Shown here: positions 15,300 through 48,694 of the stretch, piece after piece
How positions within the stretch are numbered: the first letter of the stretch is position 1
Layout of the letters: the number at the start of each line of letters is the position of its first letter
Source of the DNA: Glaucostegus cemiculus
Taxonomy: Eukaryota
NCBI GenBank assembly: GCA_976551045.1
Contig: CDPCPM010000010.1
Coordinates: forward strand, 20,956,001 to 21,020,000
Length of the DNA: 64,000 bases
Direction of reading: 5' to 3'
Position numbers and translations under genes: made by a program
Notes under the pieces: generated by a model
The model's database searches: none
The model's input: only the letters and a program-made list of their open reading frames with translations
What the model was told of the DNA's origin: nothing

Positions 15300-16250
15300 T
15301 TTTGTCGGCACGTTCAAAAATAAAAGCCCGAGGGACACTCCCTTTAAACGGCCATCGCGTGGTGTCGAAAGTAGGGAATCTCTCTTCAAAAGTGCGATTA
15401 CTGATTGTTTTGAAACAAACAGAAATTACCTGCTGGCTTCTTTCTGACGGTTTTTTCATCAAAACCTGCTTGAAATGCAGGTCCACGTAAGAAGTCATTA
15501 TCCCGGAGGAGTGAGCCGCGGGCTCCCTCACCACATGAAACCAAAGTCTCCGGGAGCGGCGAGACTCGGCTCCCAATGAAAGAGGAGAGAGGAGGTGGGG
15601 GGGAGAAAAAGGGGGAGATCTCACTGGGAAAGCCGCCTTCAATGGAGTTTGTGTTAAATATCCTCCCGGCCGCCGCCTCTCCGCTCCGGCGACTGTCAAA
15701 GTTCACCAGCCGAGCAAGGGACCGGGGCACAATCCAGATTGCGGCCCCCGCTGCCGCACATTTCTAACGGCGACCGACTCCCCCCCCTCCCCCCGGAGCC
15801 ACGGTTCACCTTCCGATTCCCACGCGTCGGGAGCAGAGAAAAAACCCGCCCGCTTCTGCCTGTGACCTTCGGGGAAAGTTTCTGCCCGACGACTTCACTC
15901 CACGGGGCGGGCTACATAACCTGGCGAGGGGCGTGCACCAGGCCCGCCGCGGCTCCTCCACACGCTCGCCCTCCGCCGCCCTGTCAAACTCCGGCGACAA
16001 ACTTCAGGCGCCGCCAACACGCGCAATGCGCACTCCGGGACTTCGCCTCCTGTCAATCAAGCTGCAAGCGATGGCGGTGCCCGCCACCACCTCGCACCGC
16101 ACTCTCTGGTCAACTAACTCTCTCTCTCTCTGTGCACTTTTTATTTCCTCTCTCTCTCTGCCCTTCCCGGCCTGCCGTGGCAGTTATGTGCAGGAGTGTG
16201 TGCTCCACGCCTATTAGACTGCTTGCTGCCCTGTATCAGCGGTAGTAAAA
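15300..16250. promoter_or_regulatory. CpG-island promoter of RAPGEF6
   Basis: Sharp GC/CpG enrichment. GC box GGGGCGGG at ~15904, NRF1-like GCGCAATGCGCA at 16021-16032, PBX/PREP-MEIS decamer TGATTGACAG (minus) at 16050-16059, and further CTGTCA sites at ~15693 and ~15981. Confidence 0.85.
15430..15498 (-). CDS. RAPGEF6: RAPGEF6 (PDZ-GEF2) first coding exon, MTSYVDLHFKQVLMKKPSERSQQ
   Basis: ATG at 15498, 23 codons, CAG|gtaatt donor. Resembles the RAPGEF2/6 N-terminus (MASYVDNSFRQAVMKNPPERTPQ). Assigned to RAPGEF6 from the conserved FNIP1-RAPGEF6 tandem synteny. Exon 2 was not recognised in 1-15429. Confidence 0.85.
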
Positions 16251-16790
16251 ACAGAATATGCTGTAATTGTTCAGCACGTCAGCTAGCATCTGTGAAGAGA
16301 GAAACGGAGGAAATGATTCAGGTCGATCACCTTTCATCAGAAGTTGGAAGATTAGAAATCAATATTTTTAACTTGCACATAAGGGGTTGGGGTAAATAGG
16401 ATAAAAGGAATGTGTGCAATAAGGGTGGAGACCACGAGAAGTTGAATGGAGGTTGGTGGGGGTGGGACAACTCAGTCTGGTGAAAGCTTTGTTAATCGCA
16501 ACCGATCTGCCTAGAGTATTTGTAACGATTGACAAGAGGAGGAAAAAATATATAAACTGTGCCGGAACTGTGAAATTTCACATACCACAGTTACAGGAAA
16601 TCCAAAATAGAAGATAATCTGAATCTTTTAAAATCTACATTGAATCATGTGCACTGCGTTGTGCTGAATCAGAAGATAAGACGCTCTTCCTCAAATTCAC
16701 GTTGGGTCTCGTTGGAATATATTAAGAGATCAAAGACGGAAAAATCAGAATGGGAGTGGAATGGAGGATTAAAGTGAATTGTAGCAGCTG
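16245..16790 (-). mobile_element. Ancient Penelope-like element (ORF C-terminus plus pseudo-LTR) at the CpG-island edge
   Basis: Minus translation HFNPPFHSHSDFSVFDLL..SNETQREFEEERLIF matches the C-terminus of the 33859 GIY-YIG ORF. CTGATGA...GAAT core at ~16314-16340. Confidence 0.65.
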
Positions 16791-17974
16791 TTCCTCTTTT
16801 GCTATTGATTCAGTAAATTAGCTGGGGTCCTTAGTGCCCCTGCCCTCTACTTAGTTTGTCCCCCCCCCCCCCCCCCCCCAGTCTAGCAAAAGAAATATCT
16901 CCTGAGTAGTGCAATGTAACAGATGGGATTATAGGCAACAAGTAAGTGCGTTTCCAAGCTAACGTTCTCACAATACTCTGCAAAGTCTTAAAACGTGTGC
17001 TTTCATTTACATTTGAATGTTTAGGTGTATTTTTTAGACTTTTTTTAAACGCACCAAGTATGTTTTGTGGTTACGCAGCAAGTTAAAACATTAGCATGTG
17101 GCTTAGAAAGTGGCTCGTTATAAGGTCACAGCTGCAAGCCAATGAATTGCTGGCAGCAAACACTTCATTTTCACAAAGTAGCTGGTAAAATTTGACTTGA
17201 AATTTGTACATTTTGATTTTGCGATGTGATCTGTTTTGACGTTCTTGCTGACCTAGAGATCGTGCAAGGCATTTAGTAACCAGACGTAGCGTAAAAATAT
17301 CTGAAGTGGGTACCCCAAAAATAGTAGTTCGGGAAACAACTTGATAATGTATACCGTTAACTAATTAAAACTAAAGAGCAGCAGGAAACAGGCTTGTTCT
17401 AAACTGCGGCATGACCAAACATTTGGTCACCGTTATTAAAGCAAATAGTGGTGAATTTAGAAAGTCATAAAATGGTATAATACAGAAACGGGTCCTTCAG
17501 CTCCCCAAATCTATGCCGACATGAGGACCGTGTGCTTCTATGATAGAAAGCACTGATGGCATAATATTTATTTACCAGTTCGGTTTTGGAATATGTGTTC
17601 CAAACTTCTATCCCCTTACAATTAAATGTTTTTGTTTTGGATCCCAATTTGCAGTACACTTCTTCCAGGATACTTGTACTGAGAAAGGGGAAACCGGTAA
17701 GTCTTCAAACAACAAATCCCAATGTAAGCTACTTGAGGTGACCAGATAGTTATCTTCCATGAGATTTCAATAGTATTTTGCACTTGTTTCTCCTCCCTTT
17801 TGGGAATCTTGGTGCAGAGCAAGCCATGGTTCTAGATGAGAGGAGGAGGACTAAATGAGGTCAATTCATGACCCATTAGGACTTTTACCAGAAGAGTGGA
17901 TAATGTTAGAATCAGACATTAAGAAGTGCTATCAGTGAATTTGGAGAAATAGTACCAGAATCGGATAGAATCGA

Positions 17975-20935: not shown

Positions 20936-22695
20936 ATGGACTTTGACATGATTAGTAGTCTGTAATTCTTTTGTTAACAAAGAAATATTTACAGAAAAAA
21001 ACTAGATAGGGGAAATAAAAACTGAGTATTATGACTTCAGCAGAGACCTGTAGAGATCATGGAATATGATGAAATCTGCATTTACCTCACTCTTCTGGGA
21101 CTCCTCCTGCTACTTGCTCATATTGCTACAGTTGCCTAGGAGAATGTGTGTGCAAAGTTGGCCCATTTTTACCTGGTACTTTCGGAGCTGGGTGAAAACA
21201 TCAATGCAGATTGGAAAGAATTTTGCCACCTTGAGCCAGCACCCACCAAGAATGATTAAAATATAATGGAAGCAAGCTTACAACTTCACCTGTGATTTTT
21301 CCAACAATATCCCTGACAGGGCAATCTATTACTCAAAGTGCAAATTTCTTCCACTTTACATGTTATTAAATGAAATTTGTTGAACAATTTTAAAGCATGA
21401 GACATAAGCATAACAGGCCATCTGGCCCATCAAACCTACTCCAATTTTCTGCCATTTTTCATGCTGCTAATTGTACATAATTAGGAGCCTTGTTGCCACC
21501 TTATTTCAGTCCTCTTGCATTCTTCTCAACCAGCAAAAGAGGTTTTTGTTTTGTAGTACAAGCTATATTTAAATGTTACTAACTGAAGTGAAAATGTAAT
21601 ACATTAATTCAAACTCCCAAAGTATATTTTCATTTTTTCCCAAAACATGATTTAGGGATCAACCTCAACTGATTTTATTGGATTAAATTAACTCATTGTG
21701 AAGTATTTAGCCATAGAGATCAATGCCTGGTGGTTGCTGTTAGCTAAACTCAGCAGGAGCAGTAGCAGTAGTTTTAAGGAAATAAAACGATGCCCCTCTT
21801 CACAAGGAATCACTTTTCAGTAATATCTGCTGAAATGTGCTTATCTATGGAACCATGGGGGAAAAGAGAGTTTGACTATAATACCCACTAACATCTGAGC
21901 TTGTGCTTTAAAACTGACCACGTGAAAAAGTTGAAAAAGACCTTGTAGAGAGAACAGGCTAGACAAAAACAATTAGTTCAGCAGTTTAAAAAGCTGCAGC
22001 TACATTCAGTACAGTTTTTCAACACATATCAGTATTTCACACCTGATACTGATTTCACCAATTTAGGCTGACAATTCTATTCCTATTTACACCTCCTCTA
22101 TCCACCCATAACACCCATCCTTTGTTTACTCAGTTACACCTATCCTTTGTTTCTTTACTTGTCCTATTACCACCCACTTTTTCCATGCACCATCATCATT
22201 GTTATTTAATGATCCTGCTATTTCTACTTGCATCTTAAAACTTGCTTTTAATGTTCTGACTTGTCAGTTAATTACTTTACTTCATCTTAACTTGGCTTCT
22301 CTGCAAATGGTGCCCGATTTGCTGAATATTTCCAGCATTTTCTTTTTGCATTTTGGATTTCCAGTTTCCACTGCATCTATTTGATAATGCTGACATTGAA
22401 CAGAGAACCACAGAAAGGCCATGGATGTGGTGGTTTTTGTCAATCTTGATGGCAGTGCCTCATTTGCACTAATCCAAAAGCAAAATATAGCAGATGCTGG
22501 AAATTTGAACTGAAATGGAGGAAGCTGTATATACTCACTAGAATAGGTAGCATCTGTGTAGATCTTGTATATCTTGTAGCTGCATCTACTGCCTGGCAGA
22601 CAGTAACAGGAGATCACAGTCAGGGAACCATGTGGCATACATTCATGATATAAACAATAATATGGGCTAAAGATTGTTTTAGATAGTTTTGATGC

Positions 22696-25100
22696 GTCAG
22701 ATGCTGGTCCACTAACATTACGGCCCTCACGAAGAAAGCTCAGAAACGCCTCTACTTCCTGCGGAGACTGAGGAAAGCGAACTCCCATCCCTCCGTTATG
22801 AAAACCTTCTATAGAGGGACCATTGAGAGCATCCTAACCCAATGTATCACTGTTTGGTTTGGAAGCTGCTCAGCTGCTGGGCGGAAGTCCCTCCAGAGGA
22901 TAGTTAGGGCTGCGGAGAGGATCATAGGTGTCTCGCTTCCATCCCTCGCAGACATATACAAAGACCGTTGTGTGAGGAAGACCAAAAGCATAATGGCCGA
23001 CCCTTCTCACCCCTCCCATCACCTCTTTACAATTTTGCCATCGGGGAGGAGGCTTAAATGTATCAGGGCAAGAACGACCAGGCTGAACAATAGCTTCTTT
23101 CCGCAAGCCATCAGAACTGCAAACTCTCTCATCCCTCCATCTTCCTTTGTTAACACTAAGAGATACTAGGTGCACAGAAATGCCCCAGCACTTTAAATGC
23201 CTGCCACCAGCCCGTTCACTTTAATAACTATTTATTTATTTACCGGCCATTTTTAATTTAGTCTGCGTATTAATTTAATTTTAACTTCCGTAGTTTTTAA
23301 TGTTTAATGTTTTTTAATGTTTATTCTGTTAAGTGTGTCTGTGTGTCTCTGTTGGTTGTTATTTAATGGGACGAGCACCTGAGGAGGACGGTATCTCGCT
23401 CCTATGCATACTATGTATGTATATGGTTGTGACAATAAAACTGATTCTGATTCTGAATTCCCACTCTGGACATTCTTATTCTCATGACAGTTCCGAATCA
23501 GTTTTATTGTCACTTCCATATACACATTCAGCATGCATGGGAGCGAAATACCATACTCCATAGATCAAGGTGCTGGTCACATTAAAAACAATGAGAGATG
23601 CAAAGACAGAAAGAATCAGAATCAGTTTTATTGTCACAACCATATACATACATAGTATGCATAGGAGCGAGATAGCATCCTCCTCAGGTGCTCGTCCCAT
23701 TAAATAACAAACAGCAGAGACACACAGACACACTGAACAAAAAAAACATTAAAAACTACAGAAGTTTAAATTAAATAAAATACGGTAGGTTAAATTAAAT
23801 ATGGCCAGTAATTAAATAAATAGTTATTAAAGTGAGCGGGCTGGTGGCAGGCATTTAAAGTGCTGGTGCATTTCTGTGCACCTAGCATCTCTTAGTGTTA
23901 ACAAGGAAGATGGAGACATTAACTACATTAGAACTGCAAAAATTAAAAGAGACTCAAATAAAAACATTCTTAGAATGAATGTACTGATGCAGCAGTCATT
24001 GGACATTTAAAGTGCTGGTGCATTTTTATACACATCCTTTGGTGTTGGCTGGAGGGATGAAGGAGTTCATGGTTCTGATTGCTTGTGTGGGGGGGGGAGC
24101 TATTGCACAGGCTGGTAGTCCTTGCCAGGATGCACTGGAGCCTTCTTCTGGATGGCAAGAGTACATAGGTGATAGGAGGGGTGAGAAGGGTCAGACATTA
24201 TGTTTGTGGCCTTTCTGACACATCGGTCCATATATATGTCTGCAATAGAGGGTAGAGAGACACCTATAATCTTCTCTGCAGCTCTCACTATTCTCTGCAG
24301 GGACTTCTATCCAGCAGCTGAGCAGCTCCCATACAAGATGGTGATGCAGTGTGTCAGGGTGCTCTCAATGTTTCCTCCGTAGAACATTTTCATGAGAGAT
24401 CCTGCAGATGCTGGAATCTGAAGCAATACACAAAAAGGGCTGGAGGAACTCAGCAGGTCAGACAGCATCCATGGAGGGAAATAAACAGTTGCCTTTTCGG
24501 GCCGAGACCCTTCATCGGGGCAGATTTCCTAATTCCTGTTTTACTTCCTCTTTCATCCTTTAAATTGATCTTTAGAATTTGCTGCTTTGTTCTGCTGCAA
24601 TACCCCTGTGTCCTCCACTGCCAGATTTTGTTGGATAATAATACTCCTGTGAATTTCAGAACCTTGGGACAGTTTACTACATTAAATGTGCAACATAACT
24701 TGAATTGTTGTGACATTTGTAGTTTTTTTTTTGCAAGCCAATTTCTAAGTTCAACACACACTAGTTCAGGATCAAATAGTTTATAATCCCATTTGAGTCA
24801 CTAGTTTGTATTATTTCAAATGATTTTAATGATTACCTGGCCTTCTAAGTGAGAGTAGATATCTGTGGCTCGAAATTCATTCCCATCCACTATGCTCAAT
24901 CAGAATCAGAATCAGAATCAGTTTTATTGTCACAACCATATACATACATGGTACGCATAGGAGCGAGATACCGTCCTCCTCAGGAACACGTCTCATAGAA
25001 AAGAATAACATAACAACCAACAGAGAGACACATACACACTTGGCAGAATACACAGTACAAAACATTACTCATTAGTTCTTACATAAATAGTTCTTACAAT
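22696..25100. mobile_element. Cluster of Rex1-type 3' ends: + 22696-23460; - 23490-23600; - 23612-23915; - 23960-24392; - 24896-25100; pseudo-LTR at 24398-24520
   Basis: ORF 22798..23169 is near-identical to 49180-49550. Shared 3'UTR ending GTGACAATAAAACTGATTCTGATTCTG. Confidence 0.88.
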
Positions 25101-27982: not shown

Positions 27983-29280
27983 AGTTAACCTGCCTTAATG
28001 ACTACTGCCTGTTGGTTCTGACATTCCCCTACCATGAAGTGCTTCGCGAGGCTGGTCACAACACACATTAACTCCAGATAACCATGACCCACTGCAACTC
28101 ACCTACCACCGATAAAGGTCTACAGTCGATGCCATCTCCTTGGCCCTACACCAATCTCTAGAATATCTGGACAGTAAAGACACCTACATTAGAGTATTGT
28201 TAATTGACTACAGCACTACCTTCAATACTATAATTCCAAGCAAACTCATCACCAAACTCCAAAACCTGGGACTCAACACCTCCCTTTGCAACTGGATCCT
28301 TGACTTCCTGACCAACAGAGCCGAGCAATCAGTAAGGATAGGCAGCAGCAACACCACCACCACGATTATTCTCAACACAGTGGTGCCCCATAAAGCTGCG
28401 TCCTCAGCCCCCTACTCCCTGTACACTCAGGACTGCATGGCCAGGTTCTTAATTCCATCTACAAGTTTGCAAATGATACCACTGCATTGGATAGTATCTC
28501 AAATAATGATGAGTCAGAGTACAGGAAGAAGATAGAGAGGTTAGTAACATGGTGTCATAACAACCTTTCCCTCAATGTCAGCAAAACAAAAGAGCTGGTC
28601 ATTGACTTCAGGAAGGGGGAGAGGGGTTTGGTGCACATGCTCCTACCTACATTAATAGTGATGAGGTTGAGAGCTCCAAGTTCCTAGGAGTGAACATCAC
28701 CAACAGCCTGTCCTGGTACAACCACATAGATGCCATAGCTAAGAAAGTTCACCAGCGCCTCTACTTCCTCAGGAGGCTAAAGAAATTTGGCATATCTCCA
28801 TCAATCCTTGCCAAATTTTATCAGTGCACCATAGAAAGCATCCTATCTGGATTTATCACAGCTTGGTATGGCAACTGCTCTGCCTGGGACCACAAGAAAC
28901 TGTAAGGAGTTGTGGACATGGCTCAGCACATTATGGAAACCAGCCTCCATGGACTCTGCCTATACTTCTTGCTCATTGGGCAGAAAATGCAAAAGCTTGA
29001 AACCGTGCACTACCAGCCTCAAGGACAGCTTCTATCTTGCTGTTGTAAGACTATTGAACGGTTAACTGGTATGAGAAAATGGACTCTTGACCTCACATTC
29101 TCTCTCATTATGACCTTGAACCTTGCTAACTGCACTGCACTTTCCCCGTAGCTGTGACACTTTATTCTGCTATTGTTATACCTTGTACTACCTCAATGTT
29201 CCATGTAATGAATCTATCTCTATGAACTGTATGCAAGATGAGATTTTCATTGTAGCTCAGTACATGTGACAATAATATTC
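27983..29280 (+). mobile_element. Rex1-type LINE (RT to tail) inserted in the provirus
   Basis: ORFs 28140, 28487 and 28690 ([19 protein letters not shown]; LNVSKTKELVIDFRK; QRLYFLRRLKKFG). Confidence 0.88.
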
Positions 29281-30795
29281 CAATTTTTGCTTTGTTCTGA
29301 TGCAGGGTTTTAACCTGAAATGTCAACGATTCCTTTCCTCCCACAGATGCTGCTCGACCTGCTGAATTCTTCCAGCAGATTGTTACAACTAATGGGTGTA
29401 TGATTAATTTTAGGCCCATGACAGTTCGAATGTGAGGTCTGTGGTTATGTTTATCTTAGTCAACAATGTGGGTTCCTCTGCTGTTGTCAGAGCAGGTGTA
29501 GTAACGGCACTTGTATGTGTTCATCTGTTTGTGCCAAGATGTACACTCCCACTACTTGGCCTTTTACCTGTTGATTCTTTATGCATTTCTTTACACTGGT
29601 GATTTTAGCCATTCCATGTGGTACTGAACTCCAGTTTATACACATCAAATGTTTACTGCCCATTTTCATCCTCTTGACATCCATAGCTCATTATTCTTTA
29701 AAAGACGTACAATCTGCATTCTATCGTTCTCTGTTCTATGGTTCTTGCTGTGGGAATTGTTTTGATCTCCAGGTTCATCAGGATCAGCACCATCATGGTA
29801 GCCATACTAAGAAAGGGCACAATTCTGGTCCACAGCAGTCTATGAAACCAAGTCGATGCACATACAGTACACTGTACATTTTCTCCCTAGACTGAGCTAG
29901 CTTCTTAGTCCTGTGGATCAGTTAAACAGTTTTAATAGCAATCAATGTTTCCTTCCTTTTTTTTATATCCACACCATCACATGTAATGCTGGTCAATATG
30001 CCCTCACAGACATGCGCACAAAGGGGTATTTTGGGTCACCTACCCTTTCCCTATTTTGGACATTGATTCACTGATGCATTTATTCTTTATCCTGCTCTTG
30101 GATATCTTATGCCCTCTCCTTTCTCAGCTCGTATTGTTGGTTATCTAGTTGTCCCTCCTAATACAGCATTTTACTGTTCCCATTTCCTTGCCACCCATCA
30201 ATATTTACCACTACATGTGTAGAACACCCTGTTATTCATTCAAATGAAGCCTGTCAGGTAGGGTGCTCCAAGCAGATGTATGAATGCACAGGGAAGAATA
30301 TCGACCCATCATTGTTCCATCAGTGCTGTCACCTTTGCCAAACTGGTTTTTAACATCCTGTTCATCCACTCGATCATACCTGAGCTCTGGCTGAAAGAAT
30401 CTGAAATCTCTGCCTAACTCCTAACAATTTACACACCTGCCTTGTAAAGTGTGTACCCTGGTCTGAATCCACCTCTGGAGGAAGTCCCCAGTAAGGGATT
30501 GTATCAAATACATATATTTGGGCTTATGTCCTGGTGCCACACAGGGAAATGCTTCCACTCACCTATCATTACTAAACATTATTTCTTGTCCCTCCTGTAC
30601 TGTGAGGGTTGCAGTCTATCTGTAAGTTCTGTTACAGGTCTTTGGATATTAGTTGGCATGTCATTTTGACCTTGATTGGCTTTCCAAGGTTATACTGGCT
30701 ACATATTATGCATCGCTGGCAAAGTTTAACCAAATCTCTTCCCTTCCCATTCCACCACCAATCCCTCATCAATCTGTCATACTTTGCTTGATGGA

Positions 30796-31920
30796 GGCAC
30801 AAGACACTGCAGATACTGGAATCTGAAGCAAAAATTTGCTGGAAGAACTCAGCGGGTCAGGCAGCATCTGCAGAGGGAAATGGACAGTTGACAGTTTGGG
30901 TTGAGATGCTTCATCTGGCATACACTAAAATGAAGCATCTTGACCCGAAATGTCCCTTGGTTGATCTTGAGTCTTAGGCATATTGCCTGTGATTGTGCTG
31001 CTTTAGGGTTTACTTTGAATCCTGCTTTTTTTAATACCTACAAGCTTACAGTAGACAGTCTACATCTTCATCTTCTGAGGTTAAGTCTTGTCCTTCTGGT
31101 GCTTGGCTTATTACAGAGTGGAATATATTAGCCCTGTTATGAAATCCTGTGAAACTCTGGTCCAAATGTGTTGATTCTCTCTTGGCGTGAATGCAATTTT
31201 TTTTGTGTGCTGTGATCCAATGGCATGCACCAGAACTTGTTGGCAATGTCCAGGAGGGTCTCCAATATTGAGCTACAAGAAAGACTGCAGATGCTGAAAA
31301 TCTGGAGTAACACAAAGTGCCGGAGGAACTCAGTGGGTCAGGCTGCATCTATGGAGGGAAATGGACAGTCATCATTTCTGGTCGAGACCCTTCATCAGAT
31401 CACTATTGAGTTACTTTAAGGCCTGTGTAGTCAACCATCAATCGGTATGATCTGATTGTTTTTTTGTTGTGGAAGAAGCAAAGGGCTGAACAAGATGGAA
31501 TCTGATGGGAGAGGACAGTAGACCATTGAACAGAGGGAATAAAGGGAGGGAGGGTGGTGTGGGTGAAGGGCTGGTCATGGGGGAGGGGAAAGTGAAGGGG
31601 TCAGAGGGATAAGGGTCCCTTTTTGCCTCTTCCACCTGTCACCTAGTTTCTCACATCATTCCCACTTCTTCCCTCCCACCCACCTACCTATCTACCCCCC
31701 CACTTGGATTCACCTATCACCTGTCAGCTCGTGCTCCTCCCCCTCCCCGCACCCTTTTATTCTGGCTTCTGCCCTCTTTCTTTCCAGTCCTGATGAAGGA
31801 TCTGAGCCTGAAATGTTGACTGTTCATTTCCCTCCATAGTTGCTGCCTGACCTGAGTTCCTCCAGCATTTTGTGTGTGTTGCTCCAGCTTTCCAGCATCT
31901 GCAGACTCTCTTGTGTCTCC
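30796..31920. mobile_element. Several Penelope pseudo-LTR fragments inserted in the provirus pol (30796-30955; 31275-31400 minus; 31470-31620 minus joined to 31621-31920 plus)
   Basis: Recurrent GCAGATGCTGGAA..GGAACTCAGC.GGTCAGGCAGCATC motif and CTGATGA..GAAA cores. Confidence 0.75.
31785..31822 (+). ncRNA. Minimal hammerhead ribozyme motif (second copy with intact core)
   Basis: CAGTC-CTGATGA-aggatctgagcct-GAAA-TGTT-GACTG. Confidence 0.6.
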
Positions 31921-32699
31921 ATCTTTTACTAGTGCCACCTTGGTGGTGTTTTCATATGGGGATGGATAATTATATTCCTTGTCTTTGTCGTGGTTATAAG
32001 CCTTGCTGATTGTATACCAATCATTAGGACCATAGGATCCTGGGGACAATTGGTACTGGCTAAGAGGAAGGCATTGGTACACCTTTTGGACAAACCCCAA
32101 CATCTTGACCACCGGTAATCCAGCTTTCTCTTCTGTTCCTTCTCCTGCCATTCCTGTTATTTACCTATTGGCTCATCTAATGCTACCTCTCTTCTTTCTT
32201 GTTCTGTTTCTGTTTTTTTCTCAAGATGGTCATTGATCCCTCTCAAATTCTAGTTTTTCTGTGGCTGTTCTTGTTTCTGCTGTTAATTTGTTGGAGGTAC
32301 ACCACTTTCTGACCTTGCTCTGAAGTGGGCACACTCTTGCAACTTAATTTGGTTTGGACTGTTTAGTGTCAGGAGTCTACCTCGTTCTGAGACCCTCCCA
32401 AAGTGAGCAAGTCACTATCGACTTGTACCAAGGAACATCTTGCTGTGCTGGCTTCAACCGGACTGAGGTTCAACTCTGGCCCATAAGTTTGTTGATCCCA
32501 GGGCAGCAGACCACGGTGATTCTGGCTCTTCAACTATGCATGGTAATTTAAAAGGTACTCACAAGGTGGCTCAGCCAGCACTCTTCCAATTCCTCAAAGA
32601 GATCCCATCCCTCTCTCCATTTTGTTGTGGAGTATTTTGCATCAACACCCAACTTGTGGTCTTTTGATCAAACCTTGAGCAGTCTTTACATTACACCAG

Positions 32700-33120
32700 T
32701 GGCAGGATGATTTTTTTCCTGAATTCTGAGAAACTGCTTCCCGAAAATACAGGTCACAAGTCCTTTTGTATATTGTCCTCTAGCATAACATCAGCAGTTA
32801 TTCAGAATGCTATTTGTTCATCATCAATCGCTATTCATTACATCACAAGCAGGAATTATATTTCATCTTATCTGGCAACTCATGGTGTAATTTATTCTCT
32901 CTGGAACTATATCATTTTGATGTGCACATGTCCTTGGGTTGTTTGCATGTAAGACTTTAACTCTGGTCTGAGTCCTTTGAGCTTGTTAAGCTTGTGCCCA
33001 GTCATCTAGAACAGACGCATTGCTATGTTGGCTCAAATCCTTATCTCTTGGCAAGCTGTGATAATTATCTCTTCAATGTTTATGTTGTTTTAACGATTTC
33101 CCATCATCTCTTTCCTGACG
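32700..33120 (-). repeat. 5' LTR of the provirus (~421 bp)
   Basis: Termini are short inverted repeats (plus TGGCAGGA...TCCTGACG; minus (T>C)GTCAGGA...TCCTGCCA). PBS-like TGGTG starts 1 nt inside at 32698. Similar to 25540-25820. Confidence 0.7.
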
Positions 33121-33254
33121 TGGATACAGTAACTCACTTCAGTCAGGGATTGAAAATTGACAATATGTTGACATTTGTAAATTTCATAACTAAATATAAT
33201 GGGCCTGTCCAAGTGAATAAAGACATTGCTCTTTATTCATAAAATATGGGATAT

Positions 33255-34640
33255 TGCAACGCACAGTAAATGCTGGAGGAACTCTGGTCAGGCAGTATCT
33301 ATGGTGAGAAATAAACAGTAGATGATTTGGGTCGAGACCCTTCATCAGGACTGGAAAGGAAGAGAGCAGAAGCCAGAAAAAAGTTGGGGGAGGAGCACAG
33401 GCTGGCAGGTGATGAATTAGTCCAGGTGAGAGGGGGAACGTGGGTGGGGGAGGGGGGAGATGCAAGAAGCTGAGAGGTGATGGGTAGAAGAGGCAAAGGG
33501 CTGAAGGAGGAGGAATCTGGTAGGAGAGGGCAGTAGACAATGGAGTAATGAAGGTGGGGAATAGATGAGCAGATTATGAGGGTGGGGGAAAGAGAAGGAC
33601 GAAGGGAAGACAAAAGGAGGGTGGGAAAAGGGGGGAGAAGAGGGGAGGGGTTAACGGAAGTTAGAGAAATCAATGTTGAGGCCATCAGGTTGCAGACTAC
33701 CAAGATGCAATATGATGTGTTGTTCCTCCAACCTGCGTCTGGTCTCAGTGTGGCAGTAGAAGAGGCCGTGGATATATCCCTGCAACGGCACTAAGTGCTA
33801 CACCTGTCTCTACAACTCCTCCCGCACCACCATTCAGGGCCCTAGACAGTCCTTCCAGGTGAGGCAACCCCTCACCTGTGAATCTGAGGGTGTCATTTAT
33901 TGCATCTGGTTCTCCCAGTGTGGCCTCCTCTACATCGGTGAGACCCGGCGCAGATTGGGTGACCACTTCGTCGAGCACCTTCACTCCATTCACCGCAAAA
34001 GGAAGGATCTCCCAGTGGCCACCCACTTCATTTCCACATCCCACTCCCATACTGACATGTCCATCCATGACCTTCTCTACTGCCACGTTGAGGCCAGATG
34101 TAGGTTGGAGGAACAACACTTCCTGTTCCGCCTTGGTAGTCTCCATCCTGACTGGCTCAGCCATCTATTTCTCTAACCTGATTAACCCCACTTTTTTTCC
34201 CACCCCCACCCCCTTGATTTTTCCCTCATTCCTGTGGCCCCCCTCTCCTTCCTGCTCTTTCCCCTTCCTCACCCTCATGACCTGTCCATCCATTCCCCAC
34301 CTCCTTCCCTTTATTCCATGGTCCACTTCCCTCTCCTATCGGTTTCCTCCTTCACCCCTTTGCCTCTTCTACCTATGAGCTTCTTGCATCTTCCCCCCCC
34401 TCCCCTCCCCACTCGCCTACCTTCCCCCTATCATCTGAACTCACCTATCACCTGCCTGCATGTGCCCCTCCCCAACCTTCTTAATCTGGCTTCTGCCCTC
34501 CTTTCCAGTCCTGATGAACGGTCTTGACCTGAAACATCGACTGTTTATCTCCCTCCATAGATGCTGCCTGACCTGCTGAGTTCCTCCAGCATTTTGTGTG
34601 TGTTGCTCCAGATTCCAGCATCTGCAGAATCTTGTGTTTG
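33255..34640. mobile_element. Penelope-like element: plus GIY-YIG endonuclease 3' part with pseudo-LTR (33779-34640) and inverted 5' arm (33255-33778)
   Basis: ORF 33859..34176 TCESEGVIYCIW.SQCGLLYIGETRRRLGDHFVEHL (GIY-YIG). The minus arm repeats the ORF C-terminus and pseudo-LTR. Confidence 0.9.
34506..34543 (+). ncRNA. Minimal type I hammerhead ribozyme motif in Penelope pseudo-LTR
   Basis: CAGTC-CTGATGA-acggtcttgacct-GAAA-CATC-GACTG: stem I CAGTC/GACTG, core boxes intact, vestigial stem III. Confidence 0.7.
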
Positions 34641-36185
34641 TGAATAAAGTATATTTTTGGAAAACACACACACTTTTTACACTTTGCATGATATTTGCTA
34701 ATTGTATAATATATTGTCTATGGTTTCTATGTTATGTTTGTGTTGCCTAGTTTGCTTGCACTATTCTTTTTGTTTCATCAGTGAATGTTTTGTGTCTGTT
34801 TCCTTTTGCATACTTATCTGCTTGTATTCTTGCTTGGTACTGAAGCTAAACTTCTCCTGTTACAACTGTGATTCTTCTCCTTTTTCACTGCTGCTTCAAA
34901 AAAGTCTTTGGATTCTTGCGTACCTTCATATATTCTTTCGCCATTTTATTACCTGAATTGACATTACTCTCATCTCATTCTTCCATGTCTACTTGCTCCT
35001 CAGCCATACCCCACTAGCAGACACTGTTCAACTGCTTTCCCGTAGTATGGTAAAAACACCAAAGGCACTACACATTTTGTGCTCTCTTCTGATCTCTTCC
35101 CAACCCATTCAGTGAATTCACCCTGCTATCCCTTCACTGTCCTTCAATCTAAGTGTCTAAAATCTTCATCAGCCCTCCTCAACCATTGCTTGCCTTGAAC
35201 TGGAGATACTGTTCTATTTAATCCATCATTGCTCCATTGGTTATCTCTCTAGCTGTAATACCACACATCAAATGCCAATCGACTTTCTCAATTGTAAAAC
35301 TCCCCCTCGACTGTCAGGAGGAGCTAAGAACAGGGCTATGCAGCTAGAAAATGTGGCTAAACACAGTTTAAAAAAATTAATGAAGAATTTACAATAAAGT
35401 TGTTTCACTTCAAAGCATTGAGAAAATCATAGAATCTGATTTGCATATACCAGTCTTAACACTGCTTAACAGCAGGAGAGCTTTAACTCAGTGACACTTA
35501 ACTGTTTACATATAGAATTCTGTTTTAAACATTTACATTAGCAGTTTTTTTGAATGTTTAGAAGGAAATGTCAAAATCATGACATGTTAGATTTATGGAC
35601 AGGAAGTGCATGCCATATATGAGACTTTGCAATATATCATTTGTTTGCATTCAGTTTTGCTGCTCAGGCCTTCATATATGAACTCTTATTTAAATTTCCT
35701 GAAAGGCACATATAAAATGATTAACATTGCATTTCAGAAGATAAAAATATTAATTGGTTTTGTGGTTAAAAGTTGGACACATTTAATCTTGCATCAATAA
35801 GGTGCACTGGAACTCCCTATTTTCTCGGACATGGGCACAATGTAATGTTTGCTATCCCATTATATAGGATTACTATCCTGTGATCTGTGCTGGAAAATGC
35901 ATGGATCTAGTTGTCAAAAGAAGGCAGGACTGATCTCGTTTGTGGAGCTTGTTATTGCCTGAGCTTGTGAATGCAGCGATACCCTGTGACGTATTGGTAG
36001 TGAGGTTGTCCATGGCAAGAAGCTTAGATGGATCTAAATCTTGCATAATTTTAATACTTATCCTCGCATCCTTCCCTTTTCAGCAGTTGGGACCCCTGGT
36101 AGGCAACTTTTCCTTGAATGATCTTTTCATGTTCTAAAATTTAACCTTAATTTTTCCTTTCATCTCAAATAACTGAATATCCTTT

Positions 36186-36315
36186 GAAAAACACTATGAT
36201 GCTGGAGGAACTCAGCAGGCCAGGCAGCATCTGTGGAGAAAAGCAGGCCTGCTGAGTTCCTCCAGCATCATAGTGTTTTTCATCTAGATTCCAGCATCAG
36301 TAGTCTTTTTGTTTC
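36186..36315. mobile_element. Young Penelope-derived mini-element with internal perfect hairpin and 14-bp TSD
   Basis: TSD ACTGAATATCCTTT at 36172-36185 and 36316-36329. 37-bp perfect inverted arms at 36185-36221 and 36246-36282. Confidence 0.85.
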
Positions 36316-38569
36316 ACTGAATATCCTTTTTTTTGAAACTGGAAAACCAAATCAATCAGCATTCCAGATGTGTCTCATCAGGGCCAAATAGTCTTAATGT
36401 TTCTTGTATATCTGCCAACGACGTTAGACTGATTTGTCAGTTGATGAATGTGACGTTAAAATACATTTTAAAATAGTTCTGCACTGAAGATAATTTTTTT
36501 AAACAAAAAAACATGTTGAAAAGAATCATGTTAATCAACGTTGGAAATTGCATCAATGGAAAATGGGGTCTCTATGGAGATCTGTAAAGACTGTTTTAGT
36601 CTTGCTTCTTATGCTTTCCCATGGCTAAAGAGCTTACTATTAACCACAGTAAAGTTTCGTATGTTCAAAATATTAGGGAACTGTTACTATGCCTTGGCGG
36701 GAGTCAACATGTTCAAAGGTGGAGCCAAGAAAATTATGGAGAGTGCAAGTAATCCCTGCAGCAAGTAACAAGGATGCTATTTTTTTGCCCTATTGCCTAT
36801 TCTATTTAGTTCTTTCGGTTGTAAGCTACCCTTTGAGGATTGATTATAAGATAGGCTTCACATTGTCTGGGGAGCAGTTAGAGATGCTGTAAAATCAGTT
36901 ATTAGAACTAAATATTATTATAGGATCTTTCCATTACTTTAGGTTTGGTATGTGGGTGCAAAATTTCATATTTTCTCCTGTATTGTCCATAAAATAGAGC
37001 TGAGAAAGAACTCAATATAGAAAACCTGCATTGTGCAATTGTAAAATGGACAGCAAATATGAAAATCACTGCTCCTCTAAGTCATACAAATTAGAATGCC
37101 CTGGTATGGTCTCAGAAAAGTAATGGCAAGTGTGGCTCTTACAATCAGCCACAGCATTCATGTATGCTGCTGACCCACACCAAACCTGGTATTCTTAAAT
37201 GCCGTGGGGGCACCTGCAATTGAAAGACTATTTGATAATCTGATAAAATTTGTGCATTTAAAACAAAATGTGCTTGACTTGGTAGCAGCCTATGGTGAAT
37301 TGTACTCTTATTATTAACTTGAAGATGGGGAAAAATATTACAGGTCTCACATTGCAGAATTCTTCAGTACAGTAGTTGGAAATAAGTGAATATAACAAAA
37401 GCAATGTTTTCATACTGGTATTTGAAAAAAAATTAAACTGTTACATTTTGGGAGTTTTCCCCTTAATGGAAAAAAATTGTACATTATATTTAAATATTGA
37501 GGTTTAAAAATGAAATGGGAGCAGTCTTAAAAGATTTAAGCCTATGGCCATTTTTAAGTATTAAAGCTCGATAAACTAGTTGTGGCAAGTTGTACTCCAT
37601 CCTGATTTGAAAATACATTACCAGTCTTTCATACTCATTGGGTCTAAATCCTGGCACATCATCCCAAACCGTACTGTAGGTGGACCCATGGGCTGCTTTA
37701 GTTCAAGAAGGCAGCTCACCACTGCTTTGAAATGCTGATGGGAATGGCCAATAATGTTGGCCTTGCCAGTTTCAGCCAGATTTTGAAAATGAAATATGTA
37801 TCTAGGACTGAAACAATGACAGTTCATTGATTCATCCCAGATTTATCAAGCCAGGAAGGCTTCCATTTGTTTTACCTAAAGCTGCATGTCACAACAATGC
37901 CATGTGGAGTGATTTGTATACAACTGTCCCTTGGTATTTTTCTGGTGAAGTTTTGCTGCTTTTATTTAGAATGGTTGCAATGAATTCTATTTCTTGAGTA
38001 TTTATGACTTGGTTTGGCAAGAGGCAGTTTGCTGAGAATTGTATTTACCCAGTTCCAATCCAGCTCCTTGGCTGACATCATGCAAGTGAGAATCAGGGAG
38101 AAGAGGTGAAACTTTCAATGACTGATCGTAATCAGCAGGGCAGCTCTTACAAGAGTGAGGACATTTACCTAGCCTGACAAGGTGAGGCAGGATGTCTAAT
38201 GTAGTGAGGAGAAACTTGTTCATCAAACCAAATTTGTTACAGTAGATTCTCTCAAAATATCTTTCAATGACATTCACTTTTTGGGGATATAGCACAGACA
38301 ATACCTTGATGTGTATTGCATTGAATTTAGTAGATTACATATCTTATTTAAATAAGTTCCCAGTACCTAGAGAAGTTTTAAAGAATTTTCATAAAAATTG
38401 ATCCCCAAAATATATATTTGTTAAACTAAGTGCAATGGTGACCTATCTAAAGAGTGACAATGGAATATTCTGAAAAGCAAATTGCATTTCAAGATTTTCT
38501 CAAATAGTTGGCATTAATTTATGATGGAACTAGTGTTAAGCAAAATCTGAAGTTGGGTCAAATGACCAA

Positions 38570-40979
38570 CCATAATGTTTTTTCTTCACGTATTTATTGC
38601 ACAGAATTCTCCAAAAGTAACAAATGGTTAATACATAGTGCACACTGAAAGAAGAATATTTACAGAATGTCCTGGACGTTTTGTGCAGTTTAGACAACTT
38701 CCATTTGAGTCAAATAAATTAAAAATACTGTAAAAGACGATTACAATTGACAAAATATTAAATACAATATCTTGCTTTTAAACTCAGCATTCATGTTGCA
38801 ATTATTTAGAAATTACTTTAGTTATCTTGAAAAATTACACAATCTCCCTTAAGACTTTAAAACCATAATGCATGAAAGAAAAGCTTTGTTTGTACAAACC
38901 TACTGCTTTTGACTACAGTAGAGGATGAAAAATTAAGTATTCCTCCCAAGCAATCCATGTATCCCTTATTAAAGTAAACTCATTTGTCTTTTTAAATTGT
39001 ACCTTGCAATGTGCACATTACTACCTCAACCAAAAAAAAAGGGTTTTTATTGTTAGCCAATGCCTTTATGGAAATTTCCTTTGATTAAGGCTGTGATTAT
39101 AGTAACAAAATCAATTCATACTGTAGCTGGCTCAGACTCTATGCAGAACAAATTCCAAAGATATTTACTTCAGCAACATTGTGATGGGTTTCAAAAGGCA
39201 CTCTTTTTTTTTAAACTTGCCCTCTCAGACTTCTTTCTGGCTAGGATTTATTTCTTCCCTTTCCATCTTTCTCTATATATTACATCTTGACCAAGACAGT
39301 AAATGATGTCTGCAATCCTAGCTTCTGCTAGTGCTGCCATAAACACCAATTTTTCCCTCTTCTCTAAATGGCTTTAGCTGGGATACTCTAATTACAAATA
39401 CTGAAGTGAGGTAAAAAAAACAAAGATGACTCTTGCTGCATACAGTATGGACACTGGTACAAATGAGTTCCAATGGAAAATATTAATAAATCTAACTCTT
39501 CCCCCGCCCTCCCCCCCTCCCCCAGAGTGGATGGCTACTTTTAAAGATTTGATTTACTTTGGTTTATTGTCTGCATTTCACCCTCTTACTGCTATGCTCC
39601 TGAAAGATTTTACTTGTCATAGTAGTGGTCAACTGGATTGCTAAATGATATCCTTGCCTAACATTCCTAATCCATCCTCAACCTGGTTGGCACTGGGTTG
39701 TGAGGATATGAAAAAGTCTTAGAGAGATTACTATATTTTAAAAATGTTGAAAAATACTGCATAAAAAATATTGTAGTTAGGATCATGTACAGAATTCACT
39801 ATGGACATGAAAATACGATTGTCTCTTCGCTATATTTTCACATGATCCACTAGGAATGCATTAATTTATCCAAATCCAGAACCACATTTTGAAGATAATA
39901 TCCTGTTCTCACCATTTTAATTAGCTAAAATTTACATTTCTTCCACTCCTAATTTCTTTTGTGAGCTCCACCCACACGTGGTGCCAGTGCCTGAATGGAG
40001 TATTCTACTGCATCACTTAGCACCGTGAGCTGAATAACAGACAAATTACAAATAAAAACCAGCTAAACTAGAAATTTGGTAGCAGGGAAATGAGAGCACA
40101 ACAATTCCTTGGTGCAGAATTAACTGAGGTAGTACAGCATTGAATTGATTTCCCCTCCCCATTACAAATCATTTTCAAATGATAAGTTTTGGTCAGATCA
40201 CCTGACTGAAGGTCTGTTACTGATAGAAATAAATGAATATTGAATCTGTGACTGATCTTTCCTATATGATTTTATCCAACTTGTTGCATCAATGCTTAAA
40301 TTTTAGAAAAGTGAAGCAAGAACAATCACAGATAACAATTTATCTAATTAAAGGCAATGATTAGCATTGTTCAATTCTTGTCAGTTACATCAATGTATTT
40401 AAAACATTAAAACAGACTTTTTTTTAAGTTTATTCTTAAGTGGGTTTTTGTAAAAGTAAACATACAAAACATCTTTCCAAATACTCTGTCCATGGAGTAC
40501 AAAAAATAAAAATGCGCAAATATGTGCAGGTTCAGTAAAAACAGGAGGAGTTAGTTCGACTTCTCTGAAGTCAAAAAATTTCCATACATGCAACATCATA
40601 GTTTGTCAGAAGAAAAAGCTGAAATTTCTTGCTCTTAGTTTCAAAATGTGGTTGTTCAAATACCATTTTAAACTCTGGAAAAAGAATATTTCACTATCCC
40701 TTTTTGGTCTCCCCTTCCAAAACTTTCTATTTGTTGTAGACAGTTCAACAGCATTGAGAAAAGTGACTGTTTTGCTCTATAGCAGAGTCTTTTTTTTCTT
40801 CCACCAGCATGATATTCTTCTGTGGCATTTTCATGCAGCTAAAATGCAGAGGGCCTTGCCATATAAGACAGGAATATAGGATTACAAGCATGGAAAATGT
40901 CAATATTTTGGTGCTGTCTTCCATTCTGTGCAGTCATTTCCTTTTCCAATTGTTTAGCACAACTTGGCAATTGAGAAAT
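38570..40979 (-). other. FNIP1: FNIP1 3'UTR (~2.4 kb)
   Basis: AT-rich stretch after the stop with no recognisable TE. AATAAA on minus at 38598-38593, Pumilio element TGTAAATA (38664-38657) and several miRNA seed matches. The 3' end is inferred. Confidence 0.65.
38593..38598 (-). terminator. Putative FNIP1 polyadenylation signal AATAAA
   Basis: Plus-strand tttatt at the distal end of the TE-free 3' region. Confidence 0.55.
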
Positions 40980-41058
40980 TCAAAGCAATATCTGGGCCAC
41001 ATATGGAGAATGAGTGCTTGCTACAGCTGCCAGCAAGGGCAGGTCACTGGATTCAATC
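40980..41058 (-). CDS. FNIP1: FNIP1 terminal coding exon, [25 protein letters not shown]
   Basis: ttgtAG acceptor. Canonical FNIP C-terminus with TGA stop at 40982-40980. Confidence 0.97.
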
Positions 41059-43786: not shown

Positions 43787-44479
43787 CTGAGCAGAAAAAG
43801 CATTGTTTGGTTAACATCCTCCAGTTGAGGGCCTTAAACATAATGCATTTCTAAAATAATGTCTTCATAGCATCTCATCTATCTTCAGAAATGGAGGAAA
43901 ATATTCCATTTGTTTTATTATTCTGCTAATTAACATTTCCTTTTTGTCTTGTAAGATGGTGGTAACATGGTCCTTTGTAAATGAATTGCACAAATAACAT
44001 ATACAAGGAGGAATGGTGGCATAGAGATTAATTTGCTGTACAATTTACTGTACTAATAACATTGGTCAGAGCTAATGATCTGAAGTCAAATTCCCACCAC
44101 ACTATCTGGTATGTTTAAATTCAATTGATCAAATTATCTGGAACCTAGTCTCAATAAAAGCAACAATACAACTCGCACATTTGATCTGGAGAAGGAAATC
44201 TGTTGTCCTTTGGAAAGCAAGATACTGCAGATACTGGAAATAAAAAAAAATTCTGGAAACACTCAGATCAGGCTGCATCAGTGGAGACAAAAATAGAGTT
44301 AATGTTTCAGGTCAATAACCAGAACCTGGAAATTTAGAAAACAGGAATGTTTAAGCTACTGTTTCTCTTGTCATAGACTCTGCTGCTCGTAATTCCTGTG
44401 ATGTTTAAGTGAAACTTTTACAATAATGTGGCTCATTTCTGACTGCTCTCTGAAATAGCTTAGCAAACCATTCCAGTAT

Positions 44480-45205: not shown

Positions 45206-47036
45206 TGAATCAATACTCCTTTCCGAACAAGGAACATAAAAGCAGCAAGGATACAGAATGTACTTGGAGGTGGGGGAAAGGATTACATCAGAGAGATGGG
45301 ATTAGGCTGTTCTGTCATTCAGGATGATTATGACCAACCACCTATATCAATGTCATAAGCATGCTCTCCCCTTACACCTATGCCTTTCATGCTGAGAAAT
45401 TAAGCTCCTATATAAGTGGTTCTAGCTCTGTAGGTGTGAGAGTCGCTCAGAAGCATCACCACTAACCAAGTTAGCTATAAAGTTGGGTCTGCAGCAAGTG
45501 CTCATTAAACCAACATTAGAAAGAACCTTACTTAACCATGTCCTCACCAATCGATCTACTGCAGTTGCATCAGTCTAGTATAGAGCAAGGAGTGACCACT
45601 GTACCATTCTAGTGAAGAGGGTCACTCCTTCACATGCAGTACCACTGTCTTTTCTAATGGGAAAGATTTAATCTATCCAGGCATCTGAGTTCTGAGGACC
45701 ATCAGACAAATCATATTCCACCACAACTTGTAACCTCACTTATCATTACTGATAAGCCATGGAGTCAACTCTGGTTCAATGAGTGTGGAAGGACACTACA
45801 GGAGCAGCATCAAGCATAACCCAAGATCTCAATTTGACAAATCAGCAACAGAATATAGGCATGCTAAACATTAAGAGCAGTGTACAGGTGTCACCATCAA
45901 AAAGAGAGCATACCCATAACATTCAATAACCATAACTCTTTGACCTTTCCCATAAAGTCTGCTCCTATCCCTCACCAAGGCTGTGGTAAAGTATTTAGTT
46001 GGGGGAGGGGGAATTATGATGCTACTATGCAGGAACTTGAGAGCGTAAATTGGGAACAGATGTTCTTGGGGAAGTGCACAATGGAAATGTGGAGGTTGTT
46101 CAGGGAGTACTTGCATGGGGTTTTGGATAGGTTTGTCCCATTGAGGCAGGGTAAGGATGGTAGAGTGAAGGAACTATGGTTGACAAGAGACATAGAATAC
46201 CTTGTGAAGAGGAAGAAAGAAGCTTACCTCAGATTTAGAAAGCATGGATCAGACAGGGCTCTGGAGAGTTACAAGGTAGCCAGAAGGGAGCTTAAGAATG
46301 GACTTAGGAGAGCTGGAAGGGGAGATGAGAAGGCCTTGGTAAGTAGGATTAAGGACCACCCCTCCCCCCCTGCCCCAAGGCATTTTACACATACATGAAG
46401 AAAAGGAGGATAACTCAAGTGAGGGTAGGACCGATCAGGGATAAAAGAGGAAACGTGCCAGGAGTCTGAAGAGGTAGGGCAGGTCCTTAATGAATACTTT
46501 GCTTCAGTATTCACCAGGGAGAGAGACCTTGACGTTGTGAGAATGCCGTACAACAGGCTGATATATTAGGGCACGTCAACGTGAGGAAAGGGGATGTGGA
46601 AGAGTGGGTTAGTAAGTTTGCTGATGACACAAAGGTTGGTAGTGTTGTGGATAGTGTAGAAAGTTGCTGTAGGTTACAACAGGACACTGATAGGATGCAG
46701 ATCTGGGCTGAGAAGTGGCAGATGGAGTTCAACCTGGAAAAGTACGAAGTGATACACTTTGGAAGATTGAATTTGAAGCCAGAGTTCAAGGTTATTGGCA
46801 GGACTCTTAGCAATGTGGAGGAATAGAGGGATCTTGGGGTCCACGTCCATTGATCCCTCAAGGTTGCCATGCAGGTCGATAGGGTTGTTAGGAAGGCGTA
46901 TGGTCTGTTGATCTTCATGAGTTGGGGTATTGAGTTCAAGAGCCGTGAGGTAATGTTGCAGCTCTACAGAACTCTGGTTAGACTACATTTGGAATATTGT
47001 GTTCAGTTCTGGTCACCTCACTATAGGAAGGATGTG

Positions 47037-48694
47037 ATAGAAGGCAGAGGGTGACAGAGGAACTGAAGTGGATTGACATTAGGAAAGAAATGGTGATGGG
47101 TAGACTAATGGGACTGAAGGATGACAAATCCCCAGGCCCAGATGGTCTGCATCCCAGGGTACTAAAGGAGGTGGCTCTGGAAATTGTGGATGCATTGGTG
47201 ATCATTTTCCGATGTTCCTTAGAGTCGGGGTCAGTTCCTGAGGATTGGAGAAAGGCTAATGTTATTCCACTTTTTAAGAAAGGAGGGAGGGATAAAACGG
47301 GGAACTATCGTCCAGTCAGCCTGACATCTGTGGTGGGGAAGTTGCTAGAGTCTATTATTAAGGATGAAGTAACGACATATTTGGAAAGCAATGATAGGAT
47401 TGGGTCGAGTCAACATGGATTTACCAGGGGCAAATCATGCTTGACTAATCTACTGGAGTTCTTTGAGGATGTAATGAGGAAAACAGACGGGGGTGAGTTG
47501 GTGGATGTGGTGTACCTCGACTTTCAGAAGGCATTTGATAAGGTGTCGCACAGGAGATTGGTGGGTAAAATTAGGGCTCATGGAATTGGGGGGAGGGTAT
47601 TATCATAGATAGAAAACTGGTTGGCTGCTAGGAAACAAAGGGTAGGGGTGAATGGATGTTTCTCAGAATGGCTGGCCGTGACTAGTGGGGTGCCACAGGG
47701 CTCGGTGCTGGGACCGCAGCTGTTTACGATCTATGTTAATGATTTAGATGAAGGCATTGAGAATAACATTAGCAAGTTTGCTGATGATACAAAGTTGGGT
47801 GGCAGTGCGACATGTGTAGAGGATGTTAGGAGGATTCAAGGTGACTTGGATAGGTTGGGTGAGTGGGCAGATACTTGGCAGATGAAGTTTAATGTGGATA
47901 AGTGTGAGGTTATCCACTTTGGGAGCAGGAACAGGAAGGCGGATTATTATCTGAATGGTGTGGAGTTAGGTAAGGGGGAAATACAAAGGGATCTAGGAGT
48001 CCTTGTTCATTAGTCACTGAAAGTGAATGAGCAAGTACGGCAGGCAGTGATGAAGGCTAATGGAATGTTGGTCTATATTACATGGGGAATTGAGTACAAA
48101 AGCAAAGAGATTCTTTTGCATTTGTACAGGGCCCTGGTGAGACCACTCCTGGAGTATTGTGTACAGTTTTGGTCTCCAGGGTTAAGGAAGGATATCTTGG
48201 CTATAGAGGGCGTGCAGCGTAGGTTTACGAGGTTAATTCCGGGGATGTCGGGACTGTCTTGTGCTGAGAGATTGGAGAGACTGGGATTGTACACGCTGGA
48301 ATTGAGAAGATTGAGAGGGGATCTGATTGAAACATACAAGATTATTAAGGGATTGGACAAGATGGAGTCAGGAAATATGTTCCAGATGTTGGGGAAGTCC
48401 AGGACCAGAGGGCATGATTTAAGAATAAGGGGTAGGCCATTTAGGACAGAGATGAGGAAAAACTACTTCTCCCAGAGGGTTGTGAATTTGTGGAATGCAC
48501 TGCCTCGGAAGGCAGTGGAGGCCAATTCTCTGGATACTTTCAAGAAGGAGCTGGATAGGTTTCTTGTGGATGAGGGAATCAAGGGATATGGGGACAAAGC
48601 AGGAACAGGATATTGATTGTTGATGATCAGCCATGATCTCAAAATGGCGGTGCAGACTCGAAGGGCCGAATGGTCTACTTCTGCACCTATTGTC
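47037..48694 (+). mobile_element. Young 5'-truncated CR1/HER1 LINE with RT domain
   Basis: ORFs 47051, 47621 and 48023 are one frame broken only by two TAG stops. KSPGPDG, NYRPVSLTS, YLDFQKAFDKV, SGVPQGSVLGP and KFADDTKLGG. (TATTGTC)n tail. Confidence 0.95.

Follow-up and report, generated by a model that had tools for sequence, protein, structure and literature searches.

The closest described relatives of the motifs treated here are the minimal hammerhead ribozymes of metazoan Penelope-like elements (PLEs), which lie in the pseudo-long terminal repeats (pLTRs) of these retroelements and are marked by an extra nucleotide after A9, a G10.1-C11.1 pair and a palindromic 15.2-16.2 (PMC4209133; this and the other papers cited are represented here by part of their text). 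In assays, an intact minimal hammerhead had no activity as a monomer and low activity as a dimer (PMC4209133). Cleavage by the ribozyme of an Anolis element depends on protein and is not needed for insertion, and the part of that paper used here records no RNA-seq reads ending at the site (PMC11167929). We analyzed a stretch of 64,000 nucleotides (nt) from the ray Glaucostegus cemiculus (assembly GCA_976551045.1, contig CDPCPM010000010.1, positions 20,956,001 to 21,020,000 of the forward strand; hereafter, the window), in which a preliminary description had seen a recurrent hammerhead motif. All ten places where it had put the motif do hold it, at about those positions, and one more was found at 44296-44333 on the minus strand. 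We consider these copies, with a probability of about 0.88, to be passive remnants of a Penelope-like retroelement that decayed without selection, and would expect none of them to cut RNA at this locus.

The motif and its carrier

Read in register, the copies point to a family motif made of a 5-bp stem I, CUGAUGA, an extra A, a 4-bp stem II with a tetraloop, GAAA, CG and UC. This inferred form has all four of the PLE minimal hammerhead traits that can be read from sequence, namely the core boxes and the three features named above, and it stands at the expected place in the pLTR. Upstream of the best copy, positions 33760-34176 of the plus strand are the 3' end of a Penelope-like open reading frame (ORF), in which a Cys motif, recognized by eye, precedes a GIY-YIG endonuclease domain. 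The match to PF01541 (E = 0.0047, 17.6 bits) falls below the curated cutoff of 22.6, as do those of three of the four relatives scanned, and the ORF is 57 to 71% identical to six longer proteins, five of them from rays. A Cys motif ahead of GIY-YIG points to the Neptune/Nematis type of PLE. The related proteins have a YIDD/YVDN motif upstream (also by eye), yet no Pfam reverse transcriptase (RT) match. After the ORF come a pyrimidine-rich region and then the pLTR, with the motif at 34506, 330 nt past the GIY-YIG ORF, and all other hammerhead copies align to this same pLTR segment. With the ORF directly upstream and an architecture like that described in PMC4209133, the proposal of the preliminary description that the motifs are minimal type I hammerheads borne by Penelope pLTRs is supported, as far as sequence can tell.

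The family is abundant in rays: in a related species, DNA depth over the pLTR bin was about 5,800 times the unique-bin mean, which is a rough lower bound on copy number. Searches for family copies elsewhere gave no match in viral contigs and none in metagenomes. Public protein records of rays under the names "divergent protein kinase domain 1C" and "mucin-2" also contain the Penelope ORF, probably because their gene models took in transposon sequence.

A profile built from five copies gave 14 matches in the window at an E value of ≤1.3e-4 (five of them the seeds and three without the hammerhead part), with 22 listed to an E value of 10, and no match in the reversed window. The pattern CTGANGA-13 nt-GAAA occurs three times, compared with a mean of 0.21 (maximum of 2) in 100 dinucleotide shuffles. 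A strict descriptor passed only the plus-strand copy at 31785, in a shifted 3-bp register. The covariance-model search that had been proposed as a check found no Rfam hammerhead family at an E value of ≤10, whether it covered the whole window or just short stretches with the plus-strand copies at 34506 and 31785, but only low-scoring unrelated families. In the search for family copies elsewhere, a looser pattern gave 53 loci; on the profile, none of them reached much beyond the 20 nt of the pattern (best, 13 bits), and all were dropped as chance.

The lack of an Rfam match could be taken to mean that the motif is a chance hammerhead look-alike in a repeat and was never a ribozyme. Covariation of stems I and II is not above that of shuffles either: among only 11 decayed copies in the window, four of nine pairs show two-sided change, and 103 of 500 shuffles reach that number and score. 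Nevertheless, we regard a chance look-alike as quite unlikely. Pairing is found in 71% of the cells in register and in 15 to 44% of them in slid registers, and the read consensus of a further subfamily (from loose ends at 36248) keeps GGGU/ACCC, GAAA and CG with N7 and loop II changed. The four traits of the inferred family motif and its place in the pLTR speak in the same direction.

State and decay of the copies

Only two of the eleven copies, both on the plus strand, keep the full catalytic core (CUGANGA, GAAA, UH). The best of them, at 34506-34543, has C.U at 10.1/11.1 and CA at 15.2/16.2, with a predicted cut after 34538, while the second, at 31785-31822, has a weak stem II (G.U, G-C, A.C, U.G), UG at 15.2/16.2 and U at 17, with a predicted cut after 31817. 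The preliminary description had placed both cut sites correctly and had rightly called both sets of core boxes intact, but stem II is damaged in each. Its third core-intact copy, at 31366-31398 on the minus strand, does keep both boxes but has U16.1>A, G.A at 10.1/11.1 and no stem I 5' arm, and the CAGTC 5' arm that it took to be recurrent is present in only 3 of the 11 copies.

The other nine copies carry one to four core lesions each. That at 33316-33353 (minus), in the inverted arm of an insertion described below as element A, has G12>A and A15.1>U and is the antisense partner of the 34506 copy. A short solo copy at 31366-31403 (minus; homology over 31281-31398) starts from C3 and has U16.1>A and no stem I; another, at 24486-24523 (minus), also starts from C3 and has U4>C and U16.1>G. 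The copy at 30885-30922 (minus), with U4>A, G12>A and A15.1>C, lies head-to-head with a short plus-strand fragment from 30930, and the one at 29292-29329 (plus) has A9>C. Four copies, all on the minus strand, are older. One at 16307-16345 (A15.1>U, no stem I) is upstream of the RAPGEF6 start and within a decayed PLE 3' end (16244-16840, minus) with an endonuclease remnant at 16618-16800. Two are in sense orientation in RAPGEF6 intron 1, at 9029-9067 (U4>C, G5>A, U16.1>C) and 4816-4854 (C3>U, G8>A, A13>G), and the additional copy at 44296-44333, in sense orientation in an FNIP1 intron, has four core lesions. None of the eight minus-strand copies has a complete stem I.

As to the remaining traits, the extra nucleotide between A9 and 10.1 is A in 10 of the 11 copies, and G10.1-C11.1 is a G-C pair in three, all of them core-damaged, the core-intact pair having C.U (34506) and G.U (31785). 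At 15.2/16.2, CG is found in none (TG in six, CA in four and AG in one), so that the trait allowing a homodimer helix III is absent from every copy. Helix I has 5/5 pairs in the two core-intact copies and in most others is broken beside the core or absent.

These copies look like neutral fossils that decayed mainly by CpG deamination. In the seven younger copies (the four older ones, whose flanks differ, were not included), non-CpG mismatches amount to 7/70 in the core and 31/330 in the downstream pLTR (Fisher p = 0.82), and 5 of 28 CpG sites survive. Neutral decay would be expected to leave 1.7 core-intact copies; two were observed.

Insertions, host genes and transcription

The copies between 29296 and 34543 belong to five insertions: one at 29294 (plus), one at 30798-30956, the solo copy at 31281-31398 and two compound insertions delimited by self-comparison, elements B and A. 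Element A (33256-34637) is a 5'-truncated PLE (plus arm, 33760-34637) with an adjacent inverted copy (minus arm, 33256-33773). Its arms are 75 to 82% identical, depending on the alignment, their junction near 33771-33780 is palindromic, and a 10-bp direct repeat at 33213 and 34640 is a possible target-site duplication. Element B (31469-31916) consists of a plus arm at 31622-31916 and an inverted, more 5' piece at 31469-31615. Farther along, element D (36186-36314) is made of two inverted pLTR tips without a hammerhead, flanked by a 14-bp direct repeat at 36172 and 36316; it forms a strong hairpin and was the source of the top spurious Rfam matches. No convincing flanking direct repeats were found for elements B and C. 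The 3' ends of 15 fragments fall at reference positions 34597-34612 (six) and 34632-34639 (six), with three others, the two classes being about 30 nt apart. Reported marks of Penelope-like insertion are inverted 5' copies, a 30- to 40-bp tail, junction palindromes and short duplications (PMC8557442, PMC3846280, PMC11167929), and elements A and D together with the two 3'-end classes display this anatomy (inverted pLTR, 5' truncation, tail and target-site duplication). In a relative, contigs extend over the flanks and across the junction of element A, and the insertions thus appear to be shared and old.

The preliminary description had presented these copies as a cluster. Counted by copy, there is indeed enrichment (6/11 in 5.25 kb, p = 0.005), but it goes once the copies are grouped into insertions (5/13 in 5.25 kb, p = 0.12; 4/12 in a first grouping, p = 0.41, later evidence favoring five), and we therefore rejected clustering as a feature. 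PLEs tend to insert beside one another (PMC6765202). No tandem array was detected in 28500-37000 at periods up to 500, the self-comparison yielding only dispersed and inverted copies.

If the copies are passive remnants, their history was probably as follows. An abundant Penelope-like family of rays carries a minimal type I hammerhead in its pLTR. In an active element, to judge from the literature, this motif would most likely cut in dimeric form, from two pLTRs in tandem whose palindromic ACGU serves as helix III, perhaps aided by the protein of the element. The ends of the copies suggest that reverse transcription starts about 60 to 100 nt downstream of the cut site, in which case every 5'-truncated insertion over about 125 nt would bring the motif along, uncut, as the literature also indicates. 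Five such insertions, some as inverted pairs, would have entered 5.3 kb of intergenic DNA and later decayed without selection, mainly by CpG deamination.

The starts of three independent short copies agree to within 1 nt, falling on the first nucleotide of the core (reference 34510-34511); the DNA upstream of them is unrelated, and in a fourth copy homology is lost at this point (positions 24519, 31398 and 30918, minus, and 29297, plus, for the four). The post hoc chance of such a shared start is 0.001 to 0.19, depending on assumptions, and the common point could be the start of the element RNA, a splice site or a subfamily boundary. With its pyrimidine tract and CAG (80 to 88% pyrimidine), the 5' arm of stem I might be read as a splice acceptor, but this was rejected, since the whole 3' region is already 81% pyrimidine and the truncated copies have no upstream exon in common. 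Copies templated by cleaved RNA were also rejected: the two that start past the cut site begin about 5 to 14 nt downstream of it, one at the palindromic junction, and are not evidence for it. Within 34514-34637, an ATG inside the catalytic box lies 111 to 123 nt before the long 3' ends, in a frame that stops after 21 codons in this copy. This distance is close to the one reported between the start of the ORF and the site of RT initiation in the Anolis element (PMC11167929).

The ORF at 53862-55241 (minus) confirms that the source is a ray, with 96% identity to the FNIP1 protein of Pristis pectinata and 86% to that of Mobula. The exons of FNIP1 lie on the minus strand, the last coding one at 41057-40983; together with the 3' untranslated region (UTR) it occupies 38584-41057 (exon match; RNA depth stops near 38584), and stranded RNA depth in a related species gives a 3' UTR of about 2.4 kb (38584-40980, minus). 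The coding part of RAPGEF6 exon 1 (23 codons) at 15430-15498, also on the minus strand, matches the start of elasmobranch RAPGEF6 proteins. A search with three of these proteins found no later exon in the window, and 1-15429 is thus intron 1. The stretch at 29296-34543 is consequently intergenic: in the direction of the two genes, the FNIP1 transcript ends about 4 kb before it, and the start codon of RAPGEF6 follows 14 kb after it. With both genes on the minus strand, the copies at 34506 and 31785 lie on the opposite strand, and the sense strand carries 8 of the 11 copies. The preliminary description had put degenerate minus-strand copies in sense within RAPGEF6 intron 1, which applies to 4816-4854 and 9029-9067 (three core lesions each) and not to the others; the copy at 16307-16345 is instead about 810 to 850 nt upstream of the RAPGEF6 ATG, and the remaining minus-strand copies that it listed are intergenic.

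Two neighboring features may be added. The old PLE 3' end at 16244-16840 sits just upstream of the RAPGEF6 CpG island. Remnants of long interspersed nuclear elements with RT matches were seen at 47027-48616 (plus), 48627-49550 (minus), 22693-23169 (plus) and 28116-28535 (plus), the one at 47 to 48.6 kb having long frames interrupted by single stops and lying inside an FNIP1 intron.

Transcription was assessed from two RNA runs of a related species (tissue unknown; 18 to 24% of each run read). Mean RNA depth was 0.02 over 14 unique bins, compared with 9.8 and 15.7 over the FNIP1 UTR, and it was zero in both runs in three unique 390-bp bins between the copies at 31785 and 34506, although a contig of this species covers 31893-33201. 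None was seen on unique DNA beyond 38584. The five places listed for piled-up read ends include neither 34538 nor 31817, in ordinary RNA-seq data of the relative that are unsuited to testing cleavage. Over the pLTR bins of 29200-36628, the sense:antisense ratio of RNA reads was about 1.0 to 1.8 in both runs and that of DNA reads about 1.0 to 1.1; the sense excess in these family-wide reads may reflect transcription of the family elsewhere.

Prospects for cleavage and known systems

Several observations weigh against taking all copies for passive remnants. The window holds only the last 140 to 190 residues of the Penelope-like ORF and no RT-coding part. With 70 core cells, the neutrality test is small, and its reference is the majority consensus of the same copies. 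C11.1>U exceeds G12>A by 7 to 2, which is the direction that selection would give but is not significant (p = 0.18); G12>A removes the general base (PMC6155905), and C11.1>U we deem tolerable. The RNA evidence is weakened by coming from a relative, from an unknown tissue and from a fraction of each run. Finally, none of the 11 core nucleotides is lost from the copies at 34506 and 31785, and both have a perfect 5-bp stem I. The helix III strands of the two, ACAU and AUGU, are complementary, giving a perfect 4-bp helix III as a heterodimer and in neither homodimer.

These two copies might accordingly rescue each other through opposite CpG decay and cut a shared plus-strand transcript in vivo, in line with the same-strand cleavage that the preliminary description had suggested. 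The cores and all stem I arms are intact and helix III is wholly Watson-Crick, and the isolated active fold of the heterodimer (-5.0 kcal/mol) beats that of either homodimer (-3.6 and +4.2 kcal/mol). Its gap to the minimum-energy fold, 14.3 kcal/mol, does not exceed the 15.6 kcal/mol by which the inferred family motif lies above its own minimum-energy fold, although with even this motif so far above it, such energies are of relative use only. However, stem II is damaged in both copies, the dimer of the family motif scores -19.3 kcal/mol, and like complementarity of helix III is present in 8 of the 55 copy pairs, as is to be expected from CpG decay on opposite strands. The two copies are 2.7 kb apart and antisense to both host genes, with zero RNA depth in the relative in the unique bins between them. 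When a plus-strand transcript (31700-34700) was modeled, the antisense arm at 33316-33353 paired over the length of the 34506 copy, so that this intervening arm should sequester the copy; to impose the active fold took 69 kcal/mol. Even intact minimal hammerheads cut weakly as dimers (PMC4209133) or only with the element protein (PMC11167929), and we hold mutual rescue to be very improbable. If true, the thousands of TG- and CA-type copies per genome could form "decay-complemented" heterodimers, and shark and ray RNA might thus have a hidden class of cleavage sites. It is hardly credible that the minus-strand copies act in host pre-mRNA (RAPGEF6 intron 1, an FNIP1 intron or an FNIP1-RAPGEF6 read-through) as cleavage or processing elements, given that, although eight of the eleven are on the sense strand of the genes, two of them in RAPGEF6 intron 1 and one in an FNIP1 intron, all eight have one to four core lesions with no complete stem I and the unique DNA past 38584 shows no RNA depth in the relative.

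As passive remnants, the copies matter little as found: they extend the set of Penelope elements known to bear minimal hammerheads by a family from rays. Their lesson is that searches by boxes alone overcall intact ribozymes in CpG-decayed repeats. They would gain importance if heterodimers of complementary decay products proved to cut, or if the ends of copies, taken genome-wide, kept a record of where the element RNA starts or is cut, since the parts of PMC4209133 and PMC11167929 used here do not show cleavage of these ribozymes in vivo.

Our search of the literature on hammerheads found no title devoted to Penelope hammerheads of rays; the supplements of these papers, which may list chondrichthyan motifs, were outside it. 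Non-LTR retrozymes (Li, Clavereau and Pollet, bioRxiv 10.64898/2026.07.22.740005) share with the ray copies type I hammerheads derived from PLE pLTRs and many solo, inactive monomers, and they have been found in one chondrichthyan genome as well. Their organization differs, however, being head-to-tail arrays with a motif in each unit, whereas the ray copies are dispersed or inverted. PAc, the Poseidon element of Anolis carolinensis (Frangieh et al. 2024, PMC11167929), likewise has a hammerhead in its pLTR and two insertion ends that give a 30- to 40-bp tail, and its copies hold an uncut motif, as expected with unprocessed RNA as the template. Unlike the ray copies, PAc is an intact element, for whose ribozyme protein-assisted cutting was demonstrated, and the ray ORF, with its Cys motif before GIY-YIG, points to the Neptune/Nematis type rather than to Poseidon, an assignment made by motif (PMC8557442). 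The nearest counterpart is the minimal hammerhead of metazoan PLEs (Cervera and De la Pena 2014, PMC4209133). The ray helix II has 4 bp, compared with 7 to 8 bp in Schistosoma, the host is a ray, whereas the part of that paper used here names no cartilaginous fish, and every ray copy in the window has lost at least one defining trait. However, the ray motif agrees with it in the type I order without a stable helix III, the extra nucleotide after A9, the short helix I and the position in the pLTR, and there too most motifs are single ones in truncated copies, with opposite-strand pairs 100 to 700 bp apart.

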